A stretch of 64,000 nucleotides of DNA from an uncultured delta proteobacterium (GTDB lineage: Bacteria; Desulfobacterota; Syntrophia; Syntrophales; UBA2185): assembly GCA_963695875.1 (NCBI GenBank), contig CAVOID010000005.1, positions 128,001-192,000 on the forward strand, in the 5' to 3' direction. A program made the translations under genes and the position numbers. Each line of letters begins with the position of its first letter. Position 1 is the first letter of the stretch. The notes beneath the pieces were generated by a model. That model searched no databases. It saw only the letters and a list, made by a program, of their open reading frames with translations, and was not told the DNA's origin. Below, piece after piece: positions 7,610 through 46,699 of the stretch.

Positions 7610-8119
7610 ATGATGAAGAGGAGATTGTTGGCAATTTTAGTCAGCGCTATTTTTGTTTTCGGATTTGCGCGCGTCAGTTCTGCGGCCTCGGATACCAAAG
7701 AACTCGCCACTGAGAAGAGTGCTGTAACATTTGCGCGGGAAGTGGAAAGAGGCGGTTACAAGATCGTAACAACACAGGAGTTGAAAAGCTGGATTGACCA
7801 GAAAAAAGATATGTTGATTGTTGACACCCAGCCATACGAAGCCAGTTTCAAGAAACAACATATCCCCGGAGCGGCAAATTTGGAACTGCCCAGACCGGAA
7901 ATGACAAAACTCGACGATAAGACTAAATCGGCATTGGAAACTCTCCTTGGACCCGATAAAAACCGCATTATTGTTTTTTACTGCGGGTTTGTAGAATGCA
8001 CCCGGAGCCACAATGGGGCGATGTGGGCCACGAGGCTCGGCTATAAAAACGCTTATCGCCAACCCGGCGGCATCAGGGCCTGGAACGAAGCAGAATATCC
8101 GGTCGAAAAAGTCCAATAA
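7610..8119 (+). CDS. Exported rhodanese-domain protein
   Basis: Signal peptide, HIPGA, active-site loop FYCGFVECTRSH, PGGIRAW; RBS AAGGAGG. Confidence 0.9.
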   Translation: MMKRRLLAILVSAIFVFGFARVSSAASDTKELATEKSAVTFAREVERGGYKIVTTQELKSWIDQKKDMLIVDTQPYEASFKKQHIPGAANLELPRPEMTKLDDKTKSALETLLGPDKNRIIVFYCGFVECTRSHNGAMWATRLGYKNAYRQPGGIRAWNEAEYPVEKVQ

Positions 8120-8126
8120 GAGCGGA

Positions 8127-9183
8127 ATGGAACATTCCCAAAATGTCGAGGCATTTCTCGATGCCTGCACAGACTGTGCAGGATGCGGCTCCTGCGCCGC
8201 ATCCTGCCCCTTTCTCCAGAGGTACGGAACCCCGGATGAAATAATCACCGGTCATCCTCAGGATGTTTTTTTGTGTACAAACTGCGGTGTATGCAGCAGC
8301 AAGTGTGCCTTGGGTCTTTCCCCTGCAGAGGTGCTTTTTCAGACAAAGTGTGATTTGATCAGGACAGGAAACATTCCTGATACAGTCCGGCAAGCGCTGA
8401 GCAAGGCGCGCAGTTTTGCAGACACCGGACATCATTTCCCATTCGCCTATTATTCTACCACGGACACAGTCTTCTGGCCCGGATGCGGCCTTGCCGGGTC
8501 GTATCCAGCCATTGTCAGAAAGATTCCTGGAATCCTTGGTAATCACCTTGGCAGCAGGGTTGGTATAGTGCTTGATTGCTGTTATGACCCTGTATATCAG
8601 TTCGGCGATGTAGATACCGTAAGCATGGCCATGGAAAGCATCCGGGGAAATCTCAAAAGACACAATATCTCCCGTGTAATCACCGGCTGCCCGAACTGCC
8701 AGAAGATTTTCTCACTGTTCCTTAAGGACATAAGGGTCGAACACATTGTGGAAGTCATACCGCGGGATGCATTTACACCTGCACTAAAGAAACAGATGTA
8801 TCTCCATCACCCATGCCCCACTCTCCTGTCAGGCCGTATCAGACAGCAAACAAAAGAATTATTAGACCGGCAAGATCTAGCCATTCCTTGATTCTCAGGA
8901 ATTTTTATGCTGCGGATACGGCGGTGGATTATCCAGCATATCCCCTGCCCTGGCCGATCAATTTATCGACAGGATTATGCACGCATCGGGAGATAAACCG
9001 ATTGTCACATACTGCACCGGCTGTAAGAACCGTTTTATTAAGCGGGGGAAAAGATCATTCCATATCCTCGAATTTCTGCCCGGTATCGAACCGCTCCAAA
9101 AACCGGTCCCGTCGTTTCAACGGTGGATCAACAGATTTGTCTTAGTTCTTGCATTTAGATCATATTTTCGTAAGATATTATGA
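8127..9183 (+). CDS. Fe-S / CCG-domain (HdrD/GlpC-like) oxidoreductase with one +1 frameshift near 8888
   Basis: CTDCAGCGSCAASCP, CTNCGVCSSKC, WPGC, DCCY, GCPNC, HHPC; after the shift CCGYGG and TYCTGC continue. Confidence 0.8.
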
Positions 9184-10925: not shown

Positions 10926-11113
10926 AATACCCTTCCTGTGAAATAGCCTCAGTTATTCCCCCTTTATGAAAGGGGAACTGCACAGTTTTTTATGGTTACG
11001 CGCTGGAGCCTGCCCTCGAATGCTTTTATCGGGGGCGGAACAAGTCTCATGCTTTATGGTACCGCCACTGTGAATGAATGTTTCCTGCAAAAACACATTC
11101 AAAGAATCACACT

Positions 11114-12271
11114 ATGGATTTGATTTATTTTGATAACGCCGCTACTTCCTGGCCGAAGCCCGAAGAAACATACACTGCCATGGACCGCTACGGCAGGACG
11201 ATCGGCGGAAGCCCCGGCCGTTCGGGTCACAGGCGATCCATCGAGGCAGGCCGCATTATTCTGGACACGAGAGAGGCCCTTGCCCGGCTGCTTGGAATAG
11301 ATGATGTGTTTCAGCTCGTCTTTACGATGAATGCCACCGAGGCACTGAACCTGGCTATCTTTGGTCTCCTGTCTTCAGGCGACCATGTTATCACGTCGAG
11401 CATGGAACACAACTCGGTGATGAGGCCACTTCGGGCCCTGGAAGAAAGGGGTGTTGAAGTATCGGTCATCATGTGTTCGCCACGGGGAGAACTTGATCCC
11501 CAGGATGTCCTTGACGCCATAAAAAATAACACGAAGGCGATTTACCTGACCCACGCCTCCAATGTAACGGGCACAATCATGCCTATTCGTGAGGTCGGAA
11601 AAATTACCAGGGATCATGGCCTTACTTTTTGTATAGACGCGGCACAGACGGCGGGGGTCCTCACCCTTGATATAGATGAATTGAACATCGACCTCTTAGC
11701 CTTTACAGGCCATAAGTCGCTCTATGGCCCCCAGGGGACGGGAGGACTCTATATCAGAAAGAGTCTGGAGAAAGAAATCCAGCCGCTCATGGTGGGAGGT
11801 ACCGGCAGCCGTTCGGAGTTTGAAACACAGCCGGATTTCATGCCGGATAAATACGAATGCGGCACACCAAATGGCATCGGGCTTGCCGGGTTGGGCGCCG
11901 GTGTGGATTTTATCCTCGCGACAGGTATGAGTAACATACGGGCTAAAGAAAAGACTCTCACGCAACTCTTCCTCGATGGTTTGAAACCTATACAAGGCGT
12001 TACCATTTACGGCCCCGGCGACGCGACACGGCAAATTTCCGTAGTCTCTTTTAATATCGCCGGCGTAATGCCTTCCGAGGCCTCCCTGGCCCTTGATGAG
12101 CAATTCGGTATTATGTCCAGACCGGGACTCCATTGCGCGCCTTCTGCACACAGAACGATAGGCACTTTCCCGGGAGGCACTGTCCGTCTAAGTTTCGGAT
12201 ACTTTAACACCGAGGATGAGGTCGATCATGCCCTTGAGGCGGTGCGTAAATTAAGCCAGCAAGGGCAATGA
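11114..12271 (+). CDS. Class V aminotransferase, cysteine desulfurase / selenocysteine lyase-like
   Basis: IYFDNAATSWPKP, MEHNSVMRP, HASNVTG, FTGHKSLYGPQG, RPGLHCAP. Confidence 0.92.
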   Translation: MDLIYFDNAATSWPKPEETYTAMDRYGRTIGGSPGRSGHRRSIEAGRIILDTREALARLLGIDDVFQLVFTMNATEALNLAIFGLLSSGDHVITSSMEHNSVMRPLRALEERGVEVSVIMCSPRGELDPQDVLDAIKNNTKAIYLTHASNVTGTIMPIREVGKITRDHGLTFCIDAAQTAGVLTLDIDELNIDLLAFTGHKSLYGPQGTGGLYIRKSLEKEIQPLMVGGTGSRSEFETQPDFMPDKYECGTPNGIGLAGLGAGVDFILATGMSNIRAKEKTLTQLFLDGLKPIQGVTIYGPGDATRQISVVSFNIAGVMPSEASLALDEQFGIMSRPGLHCAPSAHRTIGTFPGGTVRLSFGYFNTEDEVDHALEAVRKLSQQGQ

Positions 12272-12439: not shown

Positions 12440-13048
12440 ATGGCAAAAATCATTGATGCGAAAGGTCTGACCTGTCCGGAGCCCGTTATCCTCACCAAGA
12501 AAGCGCTGGAACAGCAGGATGACGTCATCGTTATCGTGGACGATGACATAGCCGTCGGAAACATTAAACGGCTGGGTGCGAAACTGGGACGTGCCATTAG
12601 TATTGAAAAGAAAGAAGGGGGAATTTCCCATATCCATATCTCCGGTAGTGTCGAGGCGGGGAAACAACCGGTTGCAGAAACTGACACCCCTCACTACGAA
12701 AGCTGCGGCCAGAATACCCTCGTAGTCGTCATATCTTCAGACCGGATGGGGCGGGGAGATGATGAATTAGGATATGTCCTTATCAGGAGTTTTATCCACA
12801 CCCTTCTTACTTTAAGCCCGCTCCCGGATACGATTATCTTCTACAACACCGGGGTTAAACTGGCGGCCAGGGATTCTGAGGTTATTGATGATCTGAAACA
12901 ATTAGAGAAGGCGGGCGTGTCCATTCTGGTATGCGGCACGTGCACAAATTACTTCGGCATTTCTAATGCACTCGGTGCAGGGTGCATCTCAAACATGTAC
13001 GACATCGCGAACACCATGGCCGGAGCGGGGAGGTTGATTACACCATGA
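12440..13048 (+). CDS. yedF: Sulfurtransferase-like selenium metabolism protein YedF (TusA + DsrE domains)
   Basis: IDAKGLTCPEPVILTKKAL, MGRGDDELG, FYNTGVKL, VCGTCTNY, ISNMYDI. Confidence 0.88.
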   Translation: MAKIIDAKGLTCPEPVILTKKALEQQDDVIVIVDDDIAVGNIKRLGAKLGRAISIEKKEGGISHIHISGSVEAGKQPVAETDTPHYESCGQNTLVVVISSDRMGRGDDELGYVLIRSFIHTLLTLSPLPDTIIFYNTGVKLAARDSEVIDDLKQLEKAGVSILVCGTCTNYFGISNALGAGCISNMYDIANTMAGAGRLITP

Positions 13049-16226: not shown

Positions 16227-17561
16227 ATGAGTCAAAAACTGGTTATTGTAGGAGGCGGGGCGGCAGGCCCATCATCGGCTGCCGAAGCCAAGAGAAGAAA
16301 CCCGTCTCTTGAAGTGACGATGGTCGAGAAGGGTGACTTTGTTTCCTACGCGGCCTGACCGATGCCCTATTACATCGGTGATGTAATCAAAGAATCAAAG
16401 AAGTTGGTTATCCGCACGCCGGAAGAATTCAAGAAAACGGGCATCGACGTAAAGATCAAGACACGCGTGGATGGTATCGATACCAAAAAGGGTTCTCTTT
16501 CTTTATCCGACGGCACGAGTCTTCCTTACGACCTCCTGGTCATGGCTACGGGGGCCGAAGCGAGCCGCCTGGATATTCCGGGCAGAGACCTGGAAGGCGT
16601 CTACGTCTTCAGGGACTTGACCGATGCCTTGAAGATGAAATCCTACCTGAACGAACAGGGCTGTAAGAAGGCAGTTCTGATCGGGGCAGGCTATATCGGC
16701 ATGGAGATGTGCGAGGCCCTGAGAAATCTGGGGATCGAAGTGAAGGTCATGGACATCCTGCCCCGGCCCACCGTACGGTGGGATGCCGAATTCACGAAGA
16801 TGATCGTGGAAGAGCTAGCCAAGAACCAGGTGGAGTTCCTTCCGGAGACGAAACCTCTAGCCATCGAAAAGGGGAAGGAATACCGGTTGAAACTGCAAAC
16901 CAGCGGCGGCGAACTGGATGCCGATCTCGTGCTGATGGGAGTGGGTACAAAGCGGAACGCCGTGCTTGCCGAATCTATGGGACTTGCCTTGGGTGAAAGC
17001 GGCGCCATCAAGGTGGATTTCCGGCAGAAGACATCCCGGGAAGGGGTCTATGCGGTGGGAGACTGCTGTGAGGTCTTCCACAAGGTCGCCGGAAGATGGG
17101 TCTATTTTCCTCTCGGCGATGTCGCCAACAAGCAGGGTCGTGTTGCCGGTCAGAACATCGGCGGTTATCCGGCAGAATTCCCGGGTATCGTGGGCGCCCA
17201 GGCCTTCAAGGTCTTCAACCTGGAGGTGGCTGCCACGGGACTTACGGAAGAGGAAGCCGCAAAATACGGGTTCCAGCCGGTGAGCGCCATGATCTGGGGT
17301 CTTCCTGTCGGCCGTCCCATGGCGAAAGGTGAAAAGCTGGGCGTGAAACTTGTCGGTGACAAAACGACGGGAAAACTTCTCGGCGGCCAGTGCATCGGTG
17401 AGAAAGGGGCCGTTCAACGGGTCAGCAGCCTTTCTGTTGCCCTGTGGGCGGGACTTTCCGTGGACGAGATCGGCTACCTTGATCTCCCATACGCGCCGCC
17501 CTTCGGAGGCGCCTGGGACGCCATCCACATCGCCGCCCAGTCTCTCAGGGGAAAGATGTAA
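16227..17561 (+). CDS. Selenoprotein: FAD-dependent NADH oxidase / CoA-disulfide reductase family (U44)
   Basis: RBS GGAGG then MSQKLVIVGGGAAG...VSYAA-TGA(16356-16358)-PMPYY, in frame with ORF 16362. The paralog at 23455 has SYGACGLPY. Confidence 0.9.
16369..16387 (+). promoter_or_regulatory. Candidate SECIS hairpin
   Basis: ATTACATC-GGT-GATGTAAT, perfect 8-bp stem starting 11 nt after the TGA. Confidence 0.75.
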
Positions 17562-19443: not shown

Positions 19444-19478
19444 AAAAAGAGGCGAGGCGTTTTAGCTTGCCTCTTTTT
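19444..19478 (+). terminator. Rho-independent terminator
   Basis: AAAAAGAGGCGAG...CTTGCCTCTTTTT. Confidence 0.7.
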
Positions 19479-19640
19479 ATTTTGTCGGACTGAACTGTGA
19501 GATGTTTGAGTCAGCACACAACAACACGCTTTATCCCCTTTTCAAAATTATGACGTCAGTTGAGTTTATGAAGGACGTGTACAGATAATCTTTCATCTGA
19601 ACAGAGAATTTAAAACCCAGAATCATAAAGGAGGAATATC

Positions 19641-20348
19641 ATGAGCGAACCCACCATAATTGAGAAAGCATTTCATACCATCATGAAACGTATGGTAGAA
19701 ACCGGTCAGGCGCCCTTTTACACTGAGCTTGCCGCTGAACTCGGCCTTTCCGTTGAGGGAGGGCGGAAGGTGCTGCACGACCTTTTCTCCTCGGGAATCC
19801 CCGGATGGCTGTACCCCCGAACTGACCACATCGTCTCCTTTGCTCCGTTCAACAGCCTTCCGACACAATACAGGATCACCATCGACGGTCAGCAGAAATG
19901 GTTCGGCCAGTGAGCATTTGAATCGCTGGCGGTCTGCTGGCTATTCCCTGGCAAGACAGTGACAGTGGATTTCCCCTGTCTGGATTGCGGCGCTCCTCTC
20001 CGGGTGGCCATCCGGGACGGTATAGTTCTGAATAGTGAAGCCTCAGGGTACAAAGCCTATGTATCCGTGCCATTCTGGAAATGGTTTGAAGACCCGGGCT
20101 ATGCTTGAAGCACCATGACTCTCTTCCGGTCGGAAGAGCACGTCCGCAACTGGAAGTCCTTTGTCGAAGGCACCGACGAGGGCATCCTGTCAATGCCCGA
20201 TTTGCTCAAGCTGTTCTCCGGGCCTTTCTTCAGGCGGCGGATGGATGAAGACTATGTTTCCCACATGCGCGAATACGCCCGCGGGATGGTTGAAGCCATG
20301 AAAGAAATCGGCAAAACCGGCCCATTCTGGAAAAAGCCGAAAAATTGA
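19641..20348 (+). CDS. Selenoprotein: MerB (organomercurial lyase)-like protein, 235 aa, U91 and U156
   Basis: ORFs 19641-19913 and 20115-20348 are in the same frame, joined by a stop-free 64-codon stretch between TGA 19911 and TGA 20106. Motifs: PFNSLPTQY, WFGQ-U-AFES, PCLDCG, YA-U-STMTLFRSEEH. Confidence 0.88.
19925..19941 (+). promoter_or_regulatory. Candidate SECIS hairpin (U91)
   Basis: GCTGGC-GGTCT-GCTGGC, 6-bp stem with two G-U pairs; loop G at +18. Confidence 0.5.
20121..20138 (+). promoter_or_regulatory. Candidate SECIS hairpin (U156)
   Basis: CTCTTCC-GGTC-GGAAGAG, perfect 7-bp stem; loop G at +20. Confidence 0.75.
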
Positions 20349-20351
20349 TTC

Positions 20352-20417
20352 GGCCTTGTGTCGTGACAGGAATTGATTTCTGAAACCCCGCTCACTCATA
20401 AAGGAGCGGGGTTTTAT
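20352..20417 (+). repeat. 66-bp element containing a terminator; second copy at 26543-26608
   Basis: GGCCTTG..CGTGACAGGAATTGATT.CTGAAA...GAGCGGGGTTTTAT; 10 mismatches by manual alignment. Confidence 0.85.
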
Positions 20418-20565
20418 GAAGAGTCTCGGGGCAGTTCAATTTTTTATCATCATTTAATAGAACTGTTTTTTATATTCTCCCGAGGAGCTGGCTAGGATAG
20501 AACAGTTGTGAAAAATCCTCTAATCTGATGTATGTGGTAATCAATGAATACGTCAGGACTCCCGC

Positions 20566-32267: not shown

Positions 32268-33413
32268 ATGAATGACCACATTTGCTTGAAGGAGAGAATG
32301 CAGAAGATGATGTTCCGGGCAGGAAGACGCTATGTCTCATTGTCAATGGCACTCATGAGTTTTATGGCCATGGCGATGTTTGTCGCGGGATGCGGTGAAA
32401 AGGTCTCACCGGGAACGGCAGCAGTGGAGCGCATACCCGTTTCAGGCGTTACCATCGCCGACATCAAGCCTTCACAAGTCGATGATTACTATGAGACATC
32501 GGGAACGGTCAAAGCAAGGAATATCGGCGTCATTTCAAGCAAGACCATGGGAAGCATCACCTTTATTGCCGTCAAGGAAGGTGAGCAGGTGAAGAAGGGG
32601 CAGGTTCTGCTCACGATTGACGACCGTGATGTGGCCGAAAAGGTCAGGGCGGCTCAGAATGCGGTTGCCTCCGCACAGGAGCAAAAGAAATTGGCCGATG
32701 TAACCCTGGGACGCTACAAAAAGCTATATGATGAAAAAGCCCTCTCACGGCAGGAATTCGACCAGGTAGAAACTCAGAAGAATGTGGCAGAAAGCGAGTA
32801 CGAACGGGCAAAGGCGATTCTGAGGGAAGCGGAGGCCATACAGGGATATACCCGTGTGAGGGCGCCATTCTCAGGTATAGTCACGGGCAAGAAGATTGAC
32901 ACTGGAAGCATGGCAGTTCCGGGCATGCAGCTTTTGACCGTCGAAGACACCTCTGCGTTTCTTGTCGAGGCCGCTATGGACGAAAGGCTTGCCGCGCACA
33001 TTAAACCCGGTATTCCGGTAAATGTTGCGATTGACTCAATTAACAGGAACATGAATGGTCGGATCTCAGAGGTGGTACCCTCAATCGACCCATCGACAAG
33101 AACATTCGTCGTCAAGATCACGGTGAGTGGGGCGGGGCTGAAAACAGGTCTCTATGCCAGGGTCAGAATCCCGACCGGCAGACGGGAGGCGCTCACTGTG
33201 CCCGCCTCTTCAATTGTTGAAAAAGGCCAGCTCACGGGCGTATACGCCGTGGACGCGAAAGGGATCGTCGCTTACCGCCTTGTGCGCATCGGCAATAATT
33301 TCGGCAACAGCGTGGAAGTCCTTTCCGGGCTTGTTCCCGGAGACAGAATCATCGTCGCGGGACTGGAAAAGGCTGTAGACGGGGGCATCATGACCGAGAC
33401 ACAGGGTAAATGA
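32268..33413 (+). CDS. RND efflux periplasmic adaptor
   Basis: Lipobox VAGC, VKEGEQVKKGQVL, VRAPFSGIV, IDPSTRTF; start uncertain. Confidence 0.9.
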   Translation: MNDHICLKERMQKMMFRAGRRYVSLSMALMSFMAMAMFVAGCGEKVSPGTAAVERIPVSGVTIADIKPSQVDDYYETSGTVKARNIGVISSKTMGSITFIAVKEGEQVKKGQVLLTIDDRDVAEKVRAAQNAVASAQEQKKLADVTLGRYKKLYDEKALSRQEFDQVETQKNVAESEYERAKAILREAEAIQGYTRVRAPFSGIVTGKKIDTGSMAVPGMQLLTVEDTSAFLVEAAMDERLAAHIKPGIPVNVAIDSINRNMNGRISEVVPSIDPSTRTFVVKITVSGAGLKTGLYARVRIPTGRREALTVPASSIVEKGQLTGVYAVDAKGIVAYRLVRIGNNFGNSVEVLSGLVPGDRIIVAGLEKAVDGGIMTETQGK

Positions 33414-45468: not shown

Positions 45469-46699
45469 CCTCTTTAAAATTGCAGTCCGAAACCTCTTGC
45501 GATACAAGAGACGGACATTCCTCACAGCATCTCTTATCACCATCGGGGTGATTTTTGTCCTTGTCTTTATCTCCGTTTCCGGTTCTTTTAAAGCAATGAT
45601 GATCAGCCAGATAACGGACTCAATGCTGGGACATATCCAGATACATAAAAAGGGATATGTAGCCGCCATTGACAATTTGCCCCTCAATTTGAATCTCAGG
45701 CCACAGGCTGTTGCAAAAATCGAAGATATCCTCAATAATGATGTCGACGTGGAATCATATTCCCCACGGATCAAGTTCGGAGGGATGTTCAGTAATTTTA
45801 TAGAAACAACAAATATCCGTCTCAACGGCGTTTATCCGGATCGAGAATTTAAGACAATCCCTCTGCTTGCGTCAAGGATCAGTGCCGGCAAACAATCCAT
45901 TGAAAAAGGAGGAATCCTTATCCCTGTCCTGCTGTCAAAAGGGATGGGCGTCAAGATCGGAGATACCGTGGTGATTGTGACTACCAATAAAGATGGGTCG
46001 GTTAACGGAAAACAATTTACAGTCTCCGGCATCCTCGAAAGCGCCACCGGACCGGGTGGAAGAGATGGTTACGTTCATATCGAAGACGCCCAGGAACTTC
46101 TGAGAATGACGGAGATGGAGATAAGCGAGGTGGCAATCCGTCTCAAGGATTTCGACAGGCTCCATTCTGCCGATCTCAAGCTTCAAAATCTCCTGGCAGG
46201 AGAGTTAAATCAGCAGGGGAAACCCATTTTCGAAATTCACACATGGGAAAAGCTCTCCCCATTTTATCATCTTTCCAGAATGATTGATCTGATGACATTC
46301 TTTATTAAGCTCATGCTCATCGCCATTGTCCTCATCAGCATCATGAACGTGATGATCATGGCGGTCTATGAAAGAATCCGGGAGATTGGTACAATTGCAG
46401 CTATCGGCACGCCTCCGAAGAAGATCCTTTCCATGTTTGTGATCGAAGGGTTCTGTCTCGGGATTTTTGGTACCGTTGTAGGAAATATTTTCGGAGCTGT
46501 AATTATTTATATAATCAACGCGTCAAAGATTACTTTTGACTTTGCGATGCACCAGGGATTAATTTTGTCGGCCAATATCAGGTCCTCAGATATAATCTCC
46601 ATATCTGTCATAGTCATCATTGTCTCTGTGATTGCAAGCCTTCAGCCTGCTTTCAAAGCCTCGCGCATGGAACCGATCACAGCATTGAGACATGTCTAA
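45461..46699 (+). CDS. ABC permease, FtsX/LolE type
   Basis: IAVRNLLR, AVYERIREIG, PAFKASRMEPITAL. Confidence 0.92.
   Translation: MGNLFKIAVRNLLRYKRRTFLTASLITIGVIFVLVFISVSGSFKAMMISQITDSMLGHIQIHKKGYVAAIDNLPLNLNLRPQAVAKIEDILNNDVDVESYSPRIKFGGMFSNFIETTNIRLNGVYPDREFKTIPLLASRISAGKQSIEKGGILIPVLLSKGMGVKIGDTVVIVTTNKDGSVNGKQFTVSGILESATGPGGRDGYVHIEDAQELLRMTEMEISEVAIRLKDFDRLHSADLKLQNLLAGELNQQGKPIFEIHTWEKLSPFYHLSRMIDLMTFFIKLMLIAIVLISIMNVMIMAVYERIREIGTIAAIGTPPKKILSMFVIEGFCLGIFGTVVGNIFGAVIIYIINASKITFDFAMHQGLILSANIRSSDIISISVIVIIVSVIASLQPAFKASRMEPITALRHV

Follow-up and report, generated by a model that had tools for sequence, protein, structure and literature searches.

The gene and its two in-frame UGA codons

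The stretch of DNA analysed here (hereafter, the window) comprises 64,000 nucleotides (nt) from the genome of an uncultured delta proteobacterium of the Syntrophales. At positions 19641-20348 of its forward strand, it harbors a gene for a relative of MerB (EC 4.99.1.2) in which selenocysteine (Sec, U) very probably takes the places of both catalytic cysteines. Read directly, these positions form a single frame of 235 codons followed by a terminal TGA, and the only stops inside it are the TGAs of codon 91 (19911-19913) and codon 156 (20106-20108). Under translation table 11, the frame is split into an open reading frame (ORF) of 90 amino acids (aa; 19641..19913), a gap, and an ORF of 77 aa (20115..20348). 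The first-pass annotation of this DNA had already joined the two fragments and the gap into one 235-aa frame with exactly two in-frame TGAs, and the direct reading agrees with it on both counts. The local motifs it had listed (Q-U-AFE, A-U-STMTLF and an extra CLDC) are also present as written, i.e., Q-U-A-F-E, A-U-S-T-M-T-L-F and P-C-L-D-C (residues 112-116). The features of the gene, including the putative selenocysteine insertion sequence (SECIS) elements, are as follows:

19641..20348 (+), coding sequence (CDS) of the di-selenocysteine (di-Sec) MerB-like protein, 235 aa plus the TGA stop (frame, Pfam, structure model)
19653..19811 (+), N-terminal three-helix winged-helix-like domain, residues ~5-57 (model: helices 6-21, 27-34 and 38-50; strand 55-57)
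19854..20210 (+), MerB core domain PF03243, residues 72-190 (Pfam)
19911..19913 (+), UGA codon 91, predicted to be read as Sec, on MerB Cys96 (alignments; no other letter in the contigs of four metagenome runs)
19920..19922 (+), codon of Glu94, on MerB Asp99, the proton donor (alignments)
19920..19946 (+), SECIS-like hairpin 1: upper stem GCUGGC/GCUGGC (19925-19930 with 19936-19941), loop GGUCU (19931-19935), lower stem GAA/UUC
19977..19988 (+), C113-L-D-C116 (CxxC), in the turn between strands 107-112 and 119-125 (model, alignments)
20106..20108 (+), UGA codon 156, predicted to be read as Sec, on MerB Cys159 (alignments, relatives, metagenome contigs)
20121..20138 (+), SECIS-like hairpin 2: stem CUCUUCC/GGAAGAG, loop GGUC (20128-20131)

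The bin from which the window comes (2.86 Mb in 16 contigs, 82.6% complete) possesses the full set of genes for Sec incorporation: selA (609 bits), selC, i.e., a tRNA-Sec with the anticodon TCA on contig C6, selD, and selB in pieces. The selB matches are two overlapping pieces in different frames (207 and 164 bits; G000:C9:79843-81742, reverse strand), which cover model positions 1-105 and 99-581; the split reflects a frameshift or an assembly error in the bin. Since TGA is the commonest terminator of long frames in this genome (241/568), its genetic code is the standard one. The selD gene (395 bits; G000:C5:126708-127637) is situated just upstream of the window and has an in-frame TGA of its own (one). 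Together with an SclA-like cysteine desulfurase (TIGR01977, 484 bits; 11078-12271) and YedF (TIGR03527, 201 bits; 12440-13048), it makes up a selenium-metabolism cluster.

The GGUC apical loops of the two hairpins begin 20 nt (site 1) and 22 nt (site 2) after the respective UGA, and resemble those of the SECIS of the E. coli fdhF type. When each stretch 3' of a TGA is folded as a single sequence, the result is no better than that of its shuffles (z +0.56, -0.37), and an Rfam search of positions 19500-20500 returned no meaningful match (best E 2.6), with no family fitting the hairpins. Because single-sequence folding is thus unremarkable, the SECIS assignment draws on comparative data, i.e., on the conservation of the stems and on the peaks of synonymous-codon identity. 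These data bear out the hairpin that the first-pass annotation had drawn after each TGA: across 32 distinct relatives per site, the stems pair in 99.7% (site 1) and 99.1% (site 2) of cells, whereas only 23-62% of cells pair in the control, in which the 3' partner is shifted by 1-3 columns. A compensatory change from G-C to C-G is seen in hairpin 1 in 1/32 sequences; in hairpin 2, C-G is changed to U-A in 4/32 sequences and to U-G in 3/32. Synonymous-codon identity among 56 distinct orthologous CDSs equals 0.66 over codons 92-103 and 0.84 over codons 157-167, compared with 0.50 elsewhere, so its two top peaks along the gene coincide with the stretches just 3' of the UGAs.

The same two stretches stand out in four metagenome runs from peat and freshwater sediment, the contigs of which pile up on window positions 19870-19950 and 20086-20166. 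In one run, the summed contig depth attains 450 and 2395 on the two SECIS stretches vs. 0-50 over most other positions of the gene; summed over all contigs of the four runs, the depth there is tens to hundreds of times that of the rest of the gene. The SECIS nucleotides are shared by many different relatives. Among these contigs, no variant was found at either TGA. Overall, the evidence from sequence comparison indicates that both in-frame TGAs are very probably Sec codons, and there is hardly any doubt left about the gene and its recoding.

Fold, active site and family of the protein

Both the profile search and the structure prediction assign a MerB fold to the di-Sec protein, in line with the MerB-like nature proposed for it in the first-pass annotation. 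The Pfam MerB domain (PF03243) matches residues 72-190 with 60 bits (E 3e-16, gathering score 27), and the profile built from 48 family members retrieves MerB2 (5C17, E 9.8e-24) and MerB (1S6L and others, E 4.5e-12) in the PDB. The AlphaFold2 model has a mean pLDDT (predicted local distance difference test) of 95.2 and a pTM (predicted template modeling score) of 0.90. When this model was compared with the PDB by Foldseek, ranks 1-11 were all occupied by MerB or MerB2 (E 1.9e-9 to 1.6e-5, TM up to 0.72); the matches past rank 11 had E > 0.1 and were confined to the N-terminal winged-helix-like part. The latter domain also shows weak LexA-type similarity, both in the profile search (E 0.002-0.016) and in the fold search (E 0.25-0.42 at a probability of 0.97-0.98).

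In the sequence alignments, Sec91 falls on MerB Cys96, Sec156 on Cys159 and Glu94 on Asp99, which upholds the earlier suggestion that Sec replaces both catalytic cysteines and that the aspartate has given way to glutamate. An Asp in the column of the Glu94 motif (as GFDTL) is found in 5/121 aligned proteins. The CLDC motif described earlier as extra is so in part of its residues: C113 aligns with MerB Cys117, and C116, which lacks a counterpart in MerB, completes the CxxC. Both residues are conserved in at least 90% of 48 aligned sequences, and the overall Cys/Sec spacing is U91-x21-C113-x2-C116. The spacing of the TRASH pattern is C-x19-22-C-x3-C.

Compared with the known MerB enzymes (PDB 3F0P and 1S6L; MerB2, 5C17), the di-Sec protein shares the fold, the three active-site positions in register, and the F-x-S...W stretch after the second catalytic residue. 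It differs from them in its low identity (~20%), in the chemically analogous Sec/Glu/Sec set standing for Cys96/Asp99/Cys159, in the lack of Cys160, in the additional Cys giving rise to CxxC, and in a longer C-terminal helix; its gene also lacks a context of MerA, MerR, MerT or MerP.

The statement in the first-pass annotation that Sec-containing MerB-like proteins had been reported proved correct. The proteins in question are SaoL, described as a MerB-like "selenocysteine-assisted organometallic lyase" (NCBIfam NF040728; Haft & Gwadz, bioRxiv 10.1101/2022.07.06.499078). SaoL resembles the di-Sec protein in the MerB fold (PF03243), in the Sec at the position of MerB Cys159, in its occurrence in strict anaerobes, and in that its database proteins are truncated at the UGA and its function is inferred; a CxxC is situated in the same place as well (CSEC in locus L118). 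At the same time, SaoL as described there has a single Sec, within a C-U dipeptide, with Cys and Asp at the other catalytic positions, whereas the di-Sec protein has U91, E94 and A-U at 155-156. SaoL also marks a nine-gene SAO locus, while the neighbors of the di-Sec gene in the window are unrelated to it. The SaoL model gives the di-Sec protein 30.8 bits against a cut-off of 140; as a positive control, L118 from the same phylum scores 148.2 bits. For the rest of the SAO locus, the SaoP model yielded 23.8 bits vs. a cut-off of 295 in the 82.6%-complete genome, SaoB not being searched for. Because the SaoL model and the SaoL motif both failed, the di-Sec gene belongs to a clade other than SaoL.

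The literature gives a similar picture. The sole MerB-like entry in the table of PMC13188914, a 2026 review, is SaoL, with one Sec; a 2022 review likewise has an entry of the SaoL type only, the main text of BSepDB contains no mention of MerB, and NCBIfam release 20 has no model for a di-Sec MerB-like family. SaoL is, therefore, the only MerB-like selenoprotein found in print in these sources, and the di-Sec family is undescribed in the searched literature, with survey supplements outside the search. No MerB scaffold with two Sec in a single catalytic site is recorded in the selenoprotein catalogue of PMC13188914, as far as its table goes. We conclude that the gene is real and encodes a variant of MerB-like proteins that is new relative to SaoL and MerB.

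The family is spread well beyond the source bin, the di-Sec design being common among sediment bacteria that live without oxygen. Among near relatives, 15/41 genomes gave a match, and the 13/13 relatives read at loci L012-L024 have U at both sites. The alignment of homologs with TGA or Cys at codons 91 and 156, on which the first-pass annotation had staked its claim, was indeed found: TGA occupies both positions in 41/41 relatives' loci (those where the first-site motif was found), and Cys stands there in the Cys-form relatives. Of 401 genomes sampled evenly across the phylum, 51 matched at E <= 1e-5, and the di-Sec gene turned out to be common, with at least two TGAs in 43 places in 38/401 genomes and identities from 85% down to 41%. 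The weaker matches represent MerB-like proteins of the Cys type or single-TGA genes resembling SaoL.

The closest public loci belong to Syntrophales/Syntrophaceae bins; others come from Desulfomonile, Desulfarculaceae, a Chloroflexi bin (46% identity) and a Miltoncostaeaceae bin (32%). The Chloroflexi copy (L097, ~8000-8700, forward strand) is of the Sec/Sec form and, at 46% protein identity, retains nearly the same nucleotides in both SECIS hairpins, a likeness stemming either from a very strong RNA constraint or from gene transfer between the phyla. In the Miltoncostaeaceae copy, a Cys/Cys form, site 1 reads TGC and lacks a hairpin.

Database proteins represent the family in several forms. 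Trp at both sites is seen in 54/121 aligned proteins, which are gene calls made with TGA read as Trp on contigs of ~1 kb. The Cys/Sec form accounts for 60 proteins of ~155 aa, which carry Cys at site 1 and end just before site 2. Only two close Cys/Cys relatives were found (P0042 and P0049), and distant ones display 23-40% identity; in all of these Cys/Cys proteins, both UGA sites are aligned with Cys, and in the Cys/Sec form site 1 is. The Cys/Sec and Cys/Cys members of the same MerB-like family have 45-80% identity, equal length, and the CxxC and FRSEEH motifs in common with the Sec/Sec form. An exhaustive search of representatives adds many fragments (90-91, ~63 and 77 residues), named, where a name is given, "hypothetical protein" or "Alkylmercury lyase". 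The sampling of the forms is biased in that the Sec/Sec gene appears whole only where the gene caller reads TGA as Trp. Since gene callers otherwise cut it into fragments, surveys of merB-like genes and selenoproteomes miss this family.

In a quick IQ-TREE tree built on the first 155 residues (124 rows; four odd and three short rows excluded), the Sec/Sec (52) and Cys/Sec (60) forms interleave, and well-supported branches force at least seven switches. Judging from these sequences, site 2 is almost always Sec, with site 1 toggling between Cys and Sec within the family. As site 1 toggles in this way, the family would offer a natural experiment on Cys vs. Sec at a metal-binding catalytic site, even if its substrate were a different one.

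Genomic neighborhood

The boundaries of the gene in the window are outlined by the following features:

19454..19483 (+), terminator-like hairpin and T-run closing the upstream HpaB-family gene, 5' boundary of the unit (stem 19454-19473, tail TTTTTATTTT; consensus match only)
19560..19589 (+), weak sigma-70-like promoter match, TTGAGT-18-GATAAT (one site vs. 1.4 expected in shuffles, alone not significant)
19627..19634 (+), strong ribosome-binding site AAAGGAGG, 6 nt 5' of the ATG (sequence reading)
20386..20415 (+), GC-rich hairpin CCCCGCUC/GAGCGGGG followed by UUUU, likely a terminator (sequence reading; the terminator scan made no call, there being only four T)

Owing to its own ribosome-binding site, the hairpin closing the upstream gene, and the GC-rich hairpin with UUUU on its 3' side, the di-Sec gene has a monocistronic look; it is intact and probably monocistronic here.

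Upstream in the window, the SclA-like cysteine desulfurase, YedF and NifU are followed by a PAS-LuxR regulator, a C_GCAxxG_C_C protein, a flavoprotein resembling coenzyme A (CoA)-disulfide reductase (CoADR) and an HpaB-family protein. An isochorismatase-family hydrolase directly precedes the MerB-like gene and is adjacent to it in 20/93 loci. The cluster of PAS-LuxR, C_GCAxxG_C_C, Sec-containing CoADR (Sec-CoADR), HpaB-family and isochorismatase genes is restricted to the close clade (at least 78% identity); of 46 loci surveyed, 9-12 have each gene. The survey of neighborhoods for a universal partner of the MerB-like gene found none.

The CoADR-like gene (window 16227-17561, forward strand; CoA-disulfide-reductase/NADH-oxidase-like) appears to encode a further selenoprotein, as its active-site Cys is represented by a TGA at 16356-16358 (SYAAUPMPYY). 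The table-11 ORF begins only at 16362 and lacks the N-terminus that binds flavin adenine dinucleotide. The U is kept in the loci of eight relatives, and a hairpin with a GGU loop follows it at a spacing like that in the MerB-like gene. Elsewhere, a CoADR-like gene is located ~3 kb from the MerB-like gene in L084 and L085, and in L089 an oxidoreductase of the type "N-terminal to SelD" (TIGR03169) is encoded 82 bp downstream of it.

Two more TGA-spanning frames of the window were considered and rejected as selenoprotein genes. In the frame at 33411 (forward strand), the TGA is the stop between a membrane-fusion-like and an RND-pump-like gene (assigned from the translation alone), and in the frame at 46537 (forward strand) no start codon precedes the TGA.

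Immediately next to the MerB-like gene, three unrelated amidohydrolase families (amidase PF01425, carbon-nitrogen hydrolase, and the isochorismatase family) recur in different clades, e.g., in L069, L073, L082, L028-L030, L037, L076 and the 20 close loci. The amidase directly adjoins it in the 75-78% clade and in L037, and the carbon-nitrogen hydrolase in L076. In a Syntrophaceae record, a match to MbdU ("metal-binding double selenoprotein", NCBIfam, 514.7 bits; L065:622-1608, forward strand), with its ORF interrupted by a TGA, is situated 98 bp upstream of the MerB-like gene; searches of the other 92 loci and of the genome of the source bin gave no MbdU.

Proposed chemistry and competing explanations

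As a whole, the observations are best explained by an intact, probably monocistronic gene for a cytoplasmic MerB-fold selenoenzyme of 235 residues, presumably cleaving carbon–metal bonds; we put the probability of this explanation at roughly 0.6. In MerB, two chalcogenolates bind R-Hg+ and a carboxylate protonates the carbon, as outlined in PMC10114901. In the di-Sec protein, the SelA/SelB/SelC/SelD system would read both UGAs as Sec, each via its own SECIS hairpin inside the CDS, placing Sec91, Glu94 and Sec156 where MerB has Cys96, Asp99 and Cys159. By analogy with MerB, the two selenolates may then clamp an organometal(loid) compound at its soft metal or metalloid atom, with Glu94 protonating the leaving carbon, so that the carbon–metal bond would be cleaved. 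The family-specific C113-x-x-C116 pair could take the metal off the di-selenolate or, alternatively, reset the site or reduce an Se-Se bond. Selenolates may confer a higher nucleophilicity as well as a higher affinity at low substrate levels; as reported in PMC11639659, selenium analogues of MerB mimics cleave the Hg-C bond faster than the sulfur ones.

Because Sec/Glu/Sec stand in the catalytic register of MerB and the chemistry of MerB is known, protonolysis of a carbon–metal(loid) bond would be the most economical reading of the fold and the active-site homology, although taken by itself we rate this chemistry at slightly short of an even chance. The foremost candidate substrate is methylmercury or some other organometal present at trace levels in anoxic sediments. 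The genome of the source bin carries hgcA (460.9 bits, cut-off 275; G000:C3:25574-26566, forward strand), and the source organism is accordingly predicted from its sequence to be a mercury methylator. In most anaerobes, the anaerobic breakdown of methylmercury has no assigned enzyme, according to the account in PMC10114901, and a Sec-based MerB relative in hgcA-carrying Syntrophales represents a candidate for this role. In a still more specific picture, strict anaerobes would have in this enzyme an organometal lyase independent of mer, which would break down methylmercury at the trace levels of peat and sediment in methylators and their neighbors, with site-1 Sec as a repeatedly gained tuning of the catalytic site; the long-observed anaerobic demethylation would thereby obtain a named gene. 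This picture is speculative and, in its entirety, unlikely.

Several observations weigh against the lyase function. The curated MerB model NF009710 gives only 26.5 bits vs. a cut-off of 193, NF033555 (cut-off 200) is not listed at E up to 1, and the active-site acid is Glu, not Asp. The gene had been placed outside a mer operon by the first-pass annotation, and this still stands: the 17 window neighbors scanned include no mer gene and no gene of metal resistance or transport, MerA in the genome of the source bin stays below the cut-off (best 345 vs. 454), and MerR, MerT, MerP, MerA and ArsR, like any other gene of metal resistance or transport, are all missing among 40 flanking ORFs scanned (drawn from 58 candidate flanking ORFs of more distant loci). 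The neighbors are, instead, amidohydrolases, flavoprotein disulfide reductases, dehydrogenases and PAS-LuxR regulators; the di-Sec gene thus works outside any mer or SAO system. We would also expect a di-selenolate to bind Hg(II) very tightly, making the release of the product without a partner problematic. The link with hgcA is modest: in the phylum sample, hgcA passed the cut-off in 19/38 carrier genomes vs. 100/363 non-carriers (hand cross-tabulation), or in 21/38 carriers with the inclusion of two hgcA genes truncated by contig ends. Since the genomes are related, this is no independent test and can serve as a weak lead at best.

Some of these neighbors would suit a redox or selenium/sulfur-trafficking protein, in which Sec91 and Sec156 alternate between the selenol state and a diselenide (or, with the CxxC, a selenenyl-sulfide) and are recycled by a flavoprotein disulfide reductase. 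Such a protein would make use of the four conserved chalcogen residues U91, C113, C116 and U156. A potential reductase, the Sec-CoADR-like gene (16227-17561), is available 3.3 kb upstream in the close clade; the CoADR-like gene in L084 and L085, the TIGR03169 oxidoreductase in L089, and selD, the SclA-like desulfurase and YedF 7-20 kb upstream fit in as well. At the same time, the predicted fold is that of MerB, neither thioredoxin nor another known redox fold, the protein retains an acid at +3, like MerB, Cys and Sec replace each other freely at site 1 across the family, and the reductase neighbors are not universal. Overall, we regard this function as unlikely.

The same four residues might form a TRASH/treble-clef-like site of a protein that binds soft metals without catalysis, as a chaperone, store or sensor, perhaps in conjunction with its N-terminal winged-helix-like domain. 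The spacing U91-x21-C113-x2-C116 is indeed close to that of TRASH, in the model the CxxC is located on a beta-hairpin turn, and the N-terminal domain is weakly similar to the DNA-binding domains of LexA, DtxR and MntR. In PMC10114901, the Cu(I) chaperone NosL is described as a relative of the two treble-clef/TRASH-like units that make up the MerB core itself; the same source reports MerB Cys117, the counterpart of C113, to be buried and structural, which speaks against a binding role. The MerB alignment begins as early as residue 19-22, so most of the N-terminal domain is common to the enzyme, and Sec would be costly as a plain ligand. A pure metal binder is, therefore, even more improbable than a redox protein.

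A pseudogene, an assembly error, or a TGA read as another residue, which the split selB, the 82.6% completeness of the bin and the unremarkable single-sequence hairpin energies might suggest, is very improbable, since every full-length relative read, as well as independent metagenome contigs, has both TGAs, the genome uses TGA as its main stop codon, and true decayed copies look different. One of the latter (L119, G360:C14) has a TAA at ~codon 22 and has lost the site residues, with Sec156 changed to Val and Glu94 to Gln; in the other (L099), an internal deletion joins residue ~105 to the C-terminal tail.

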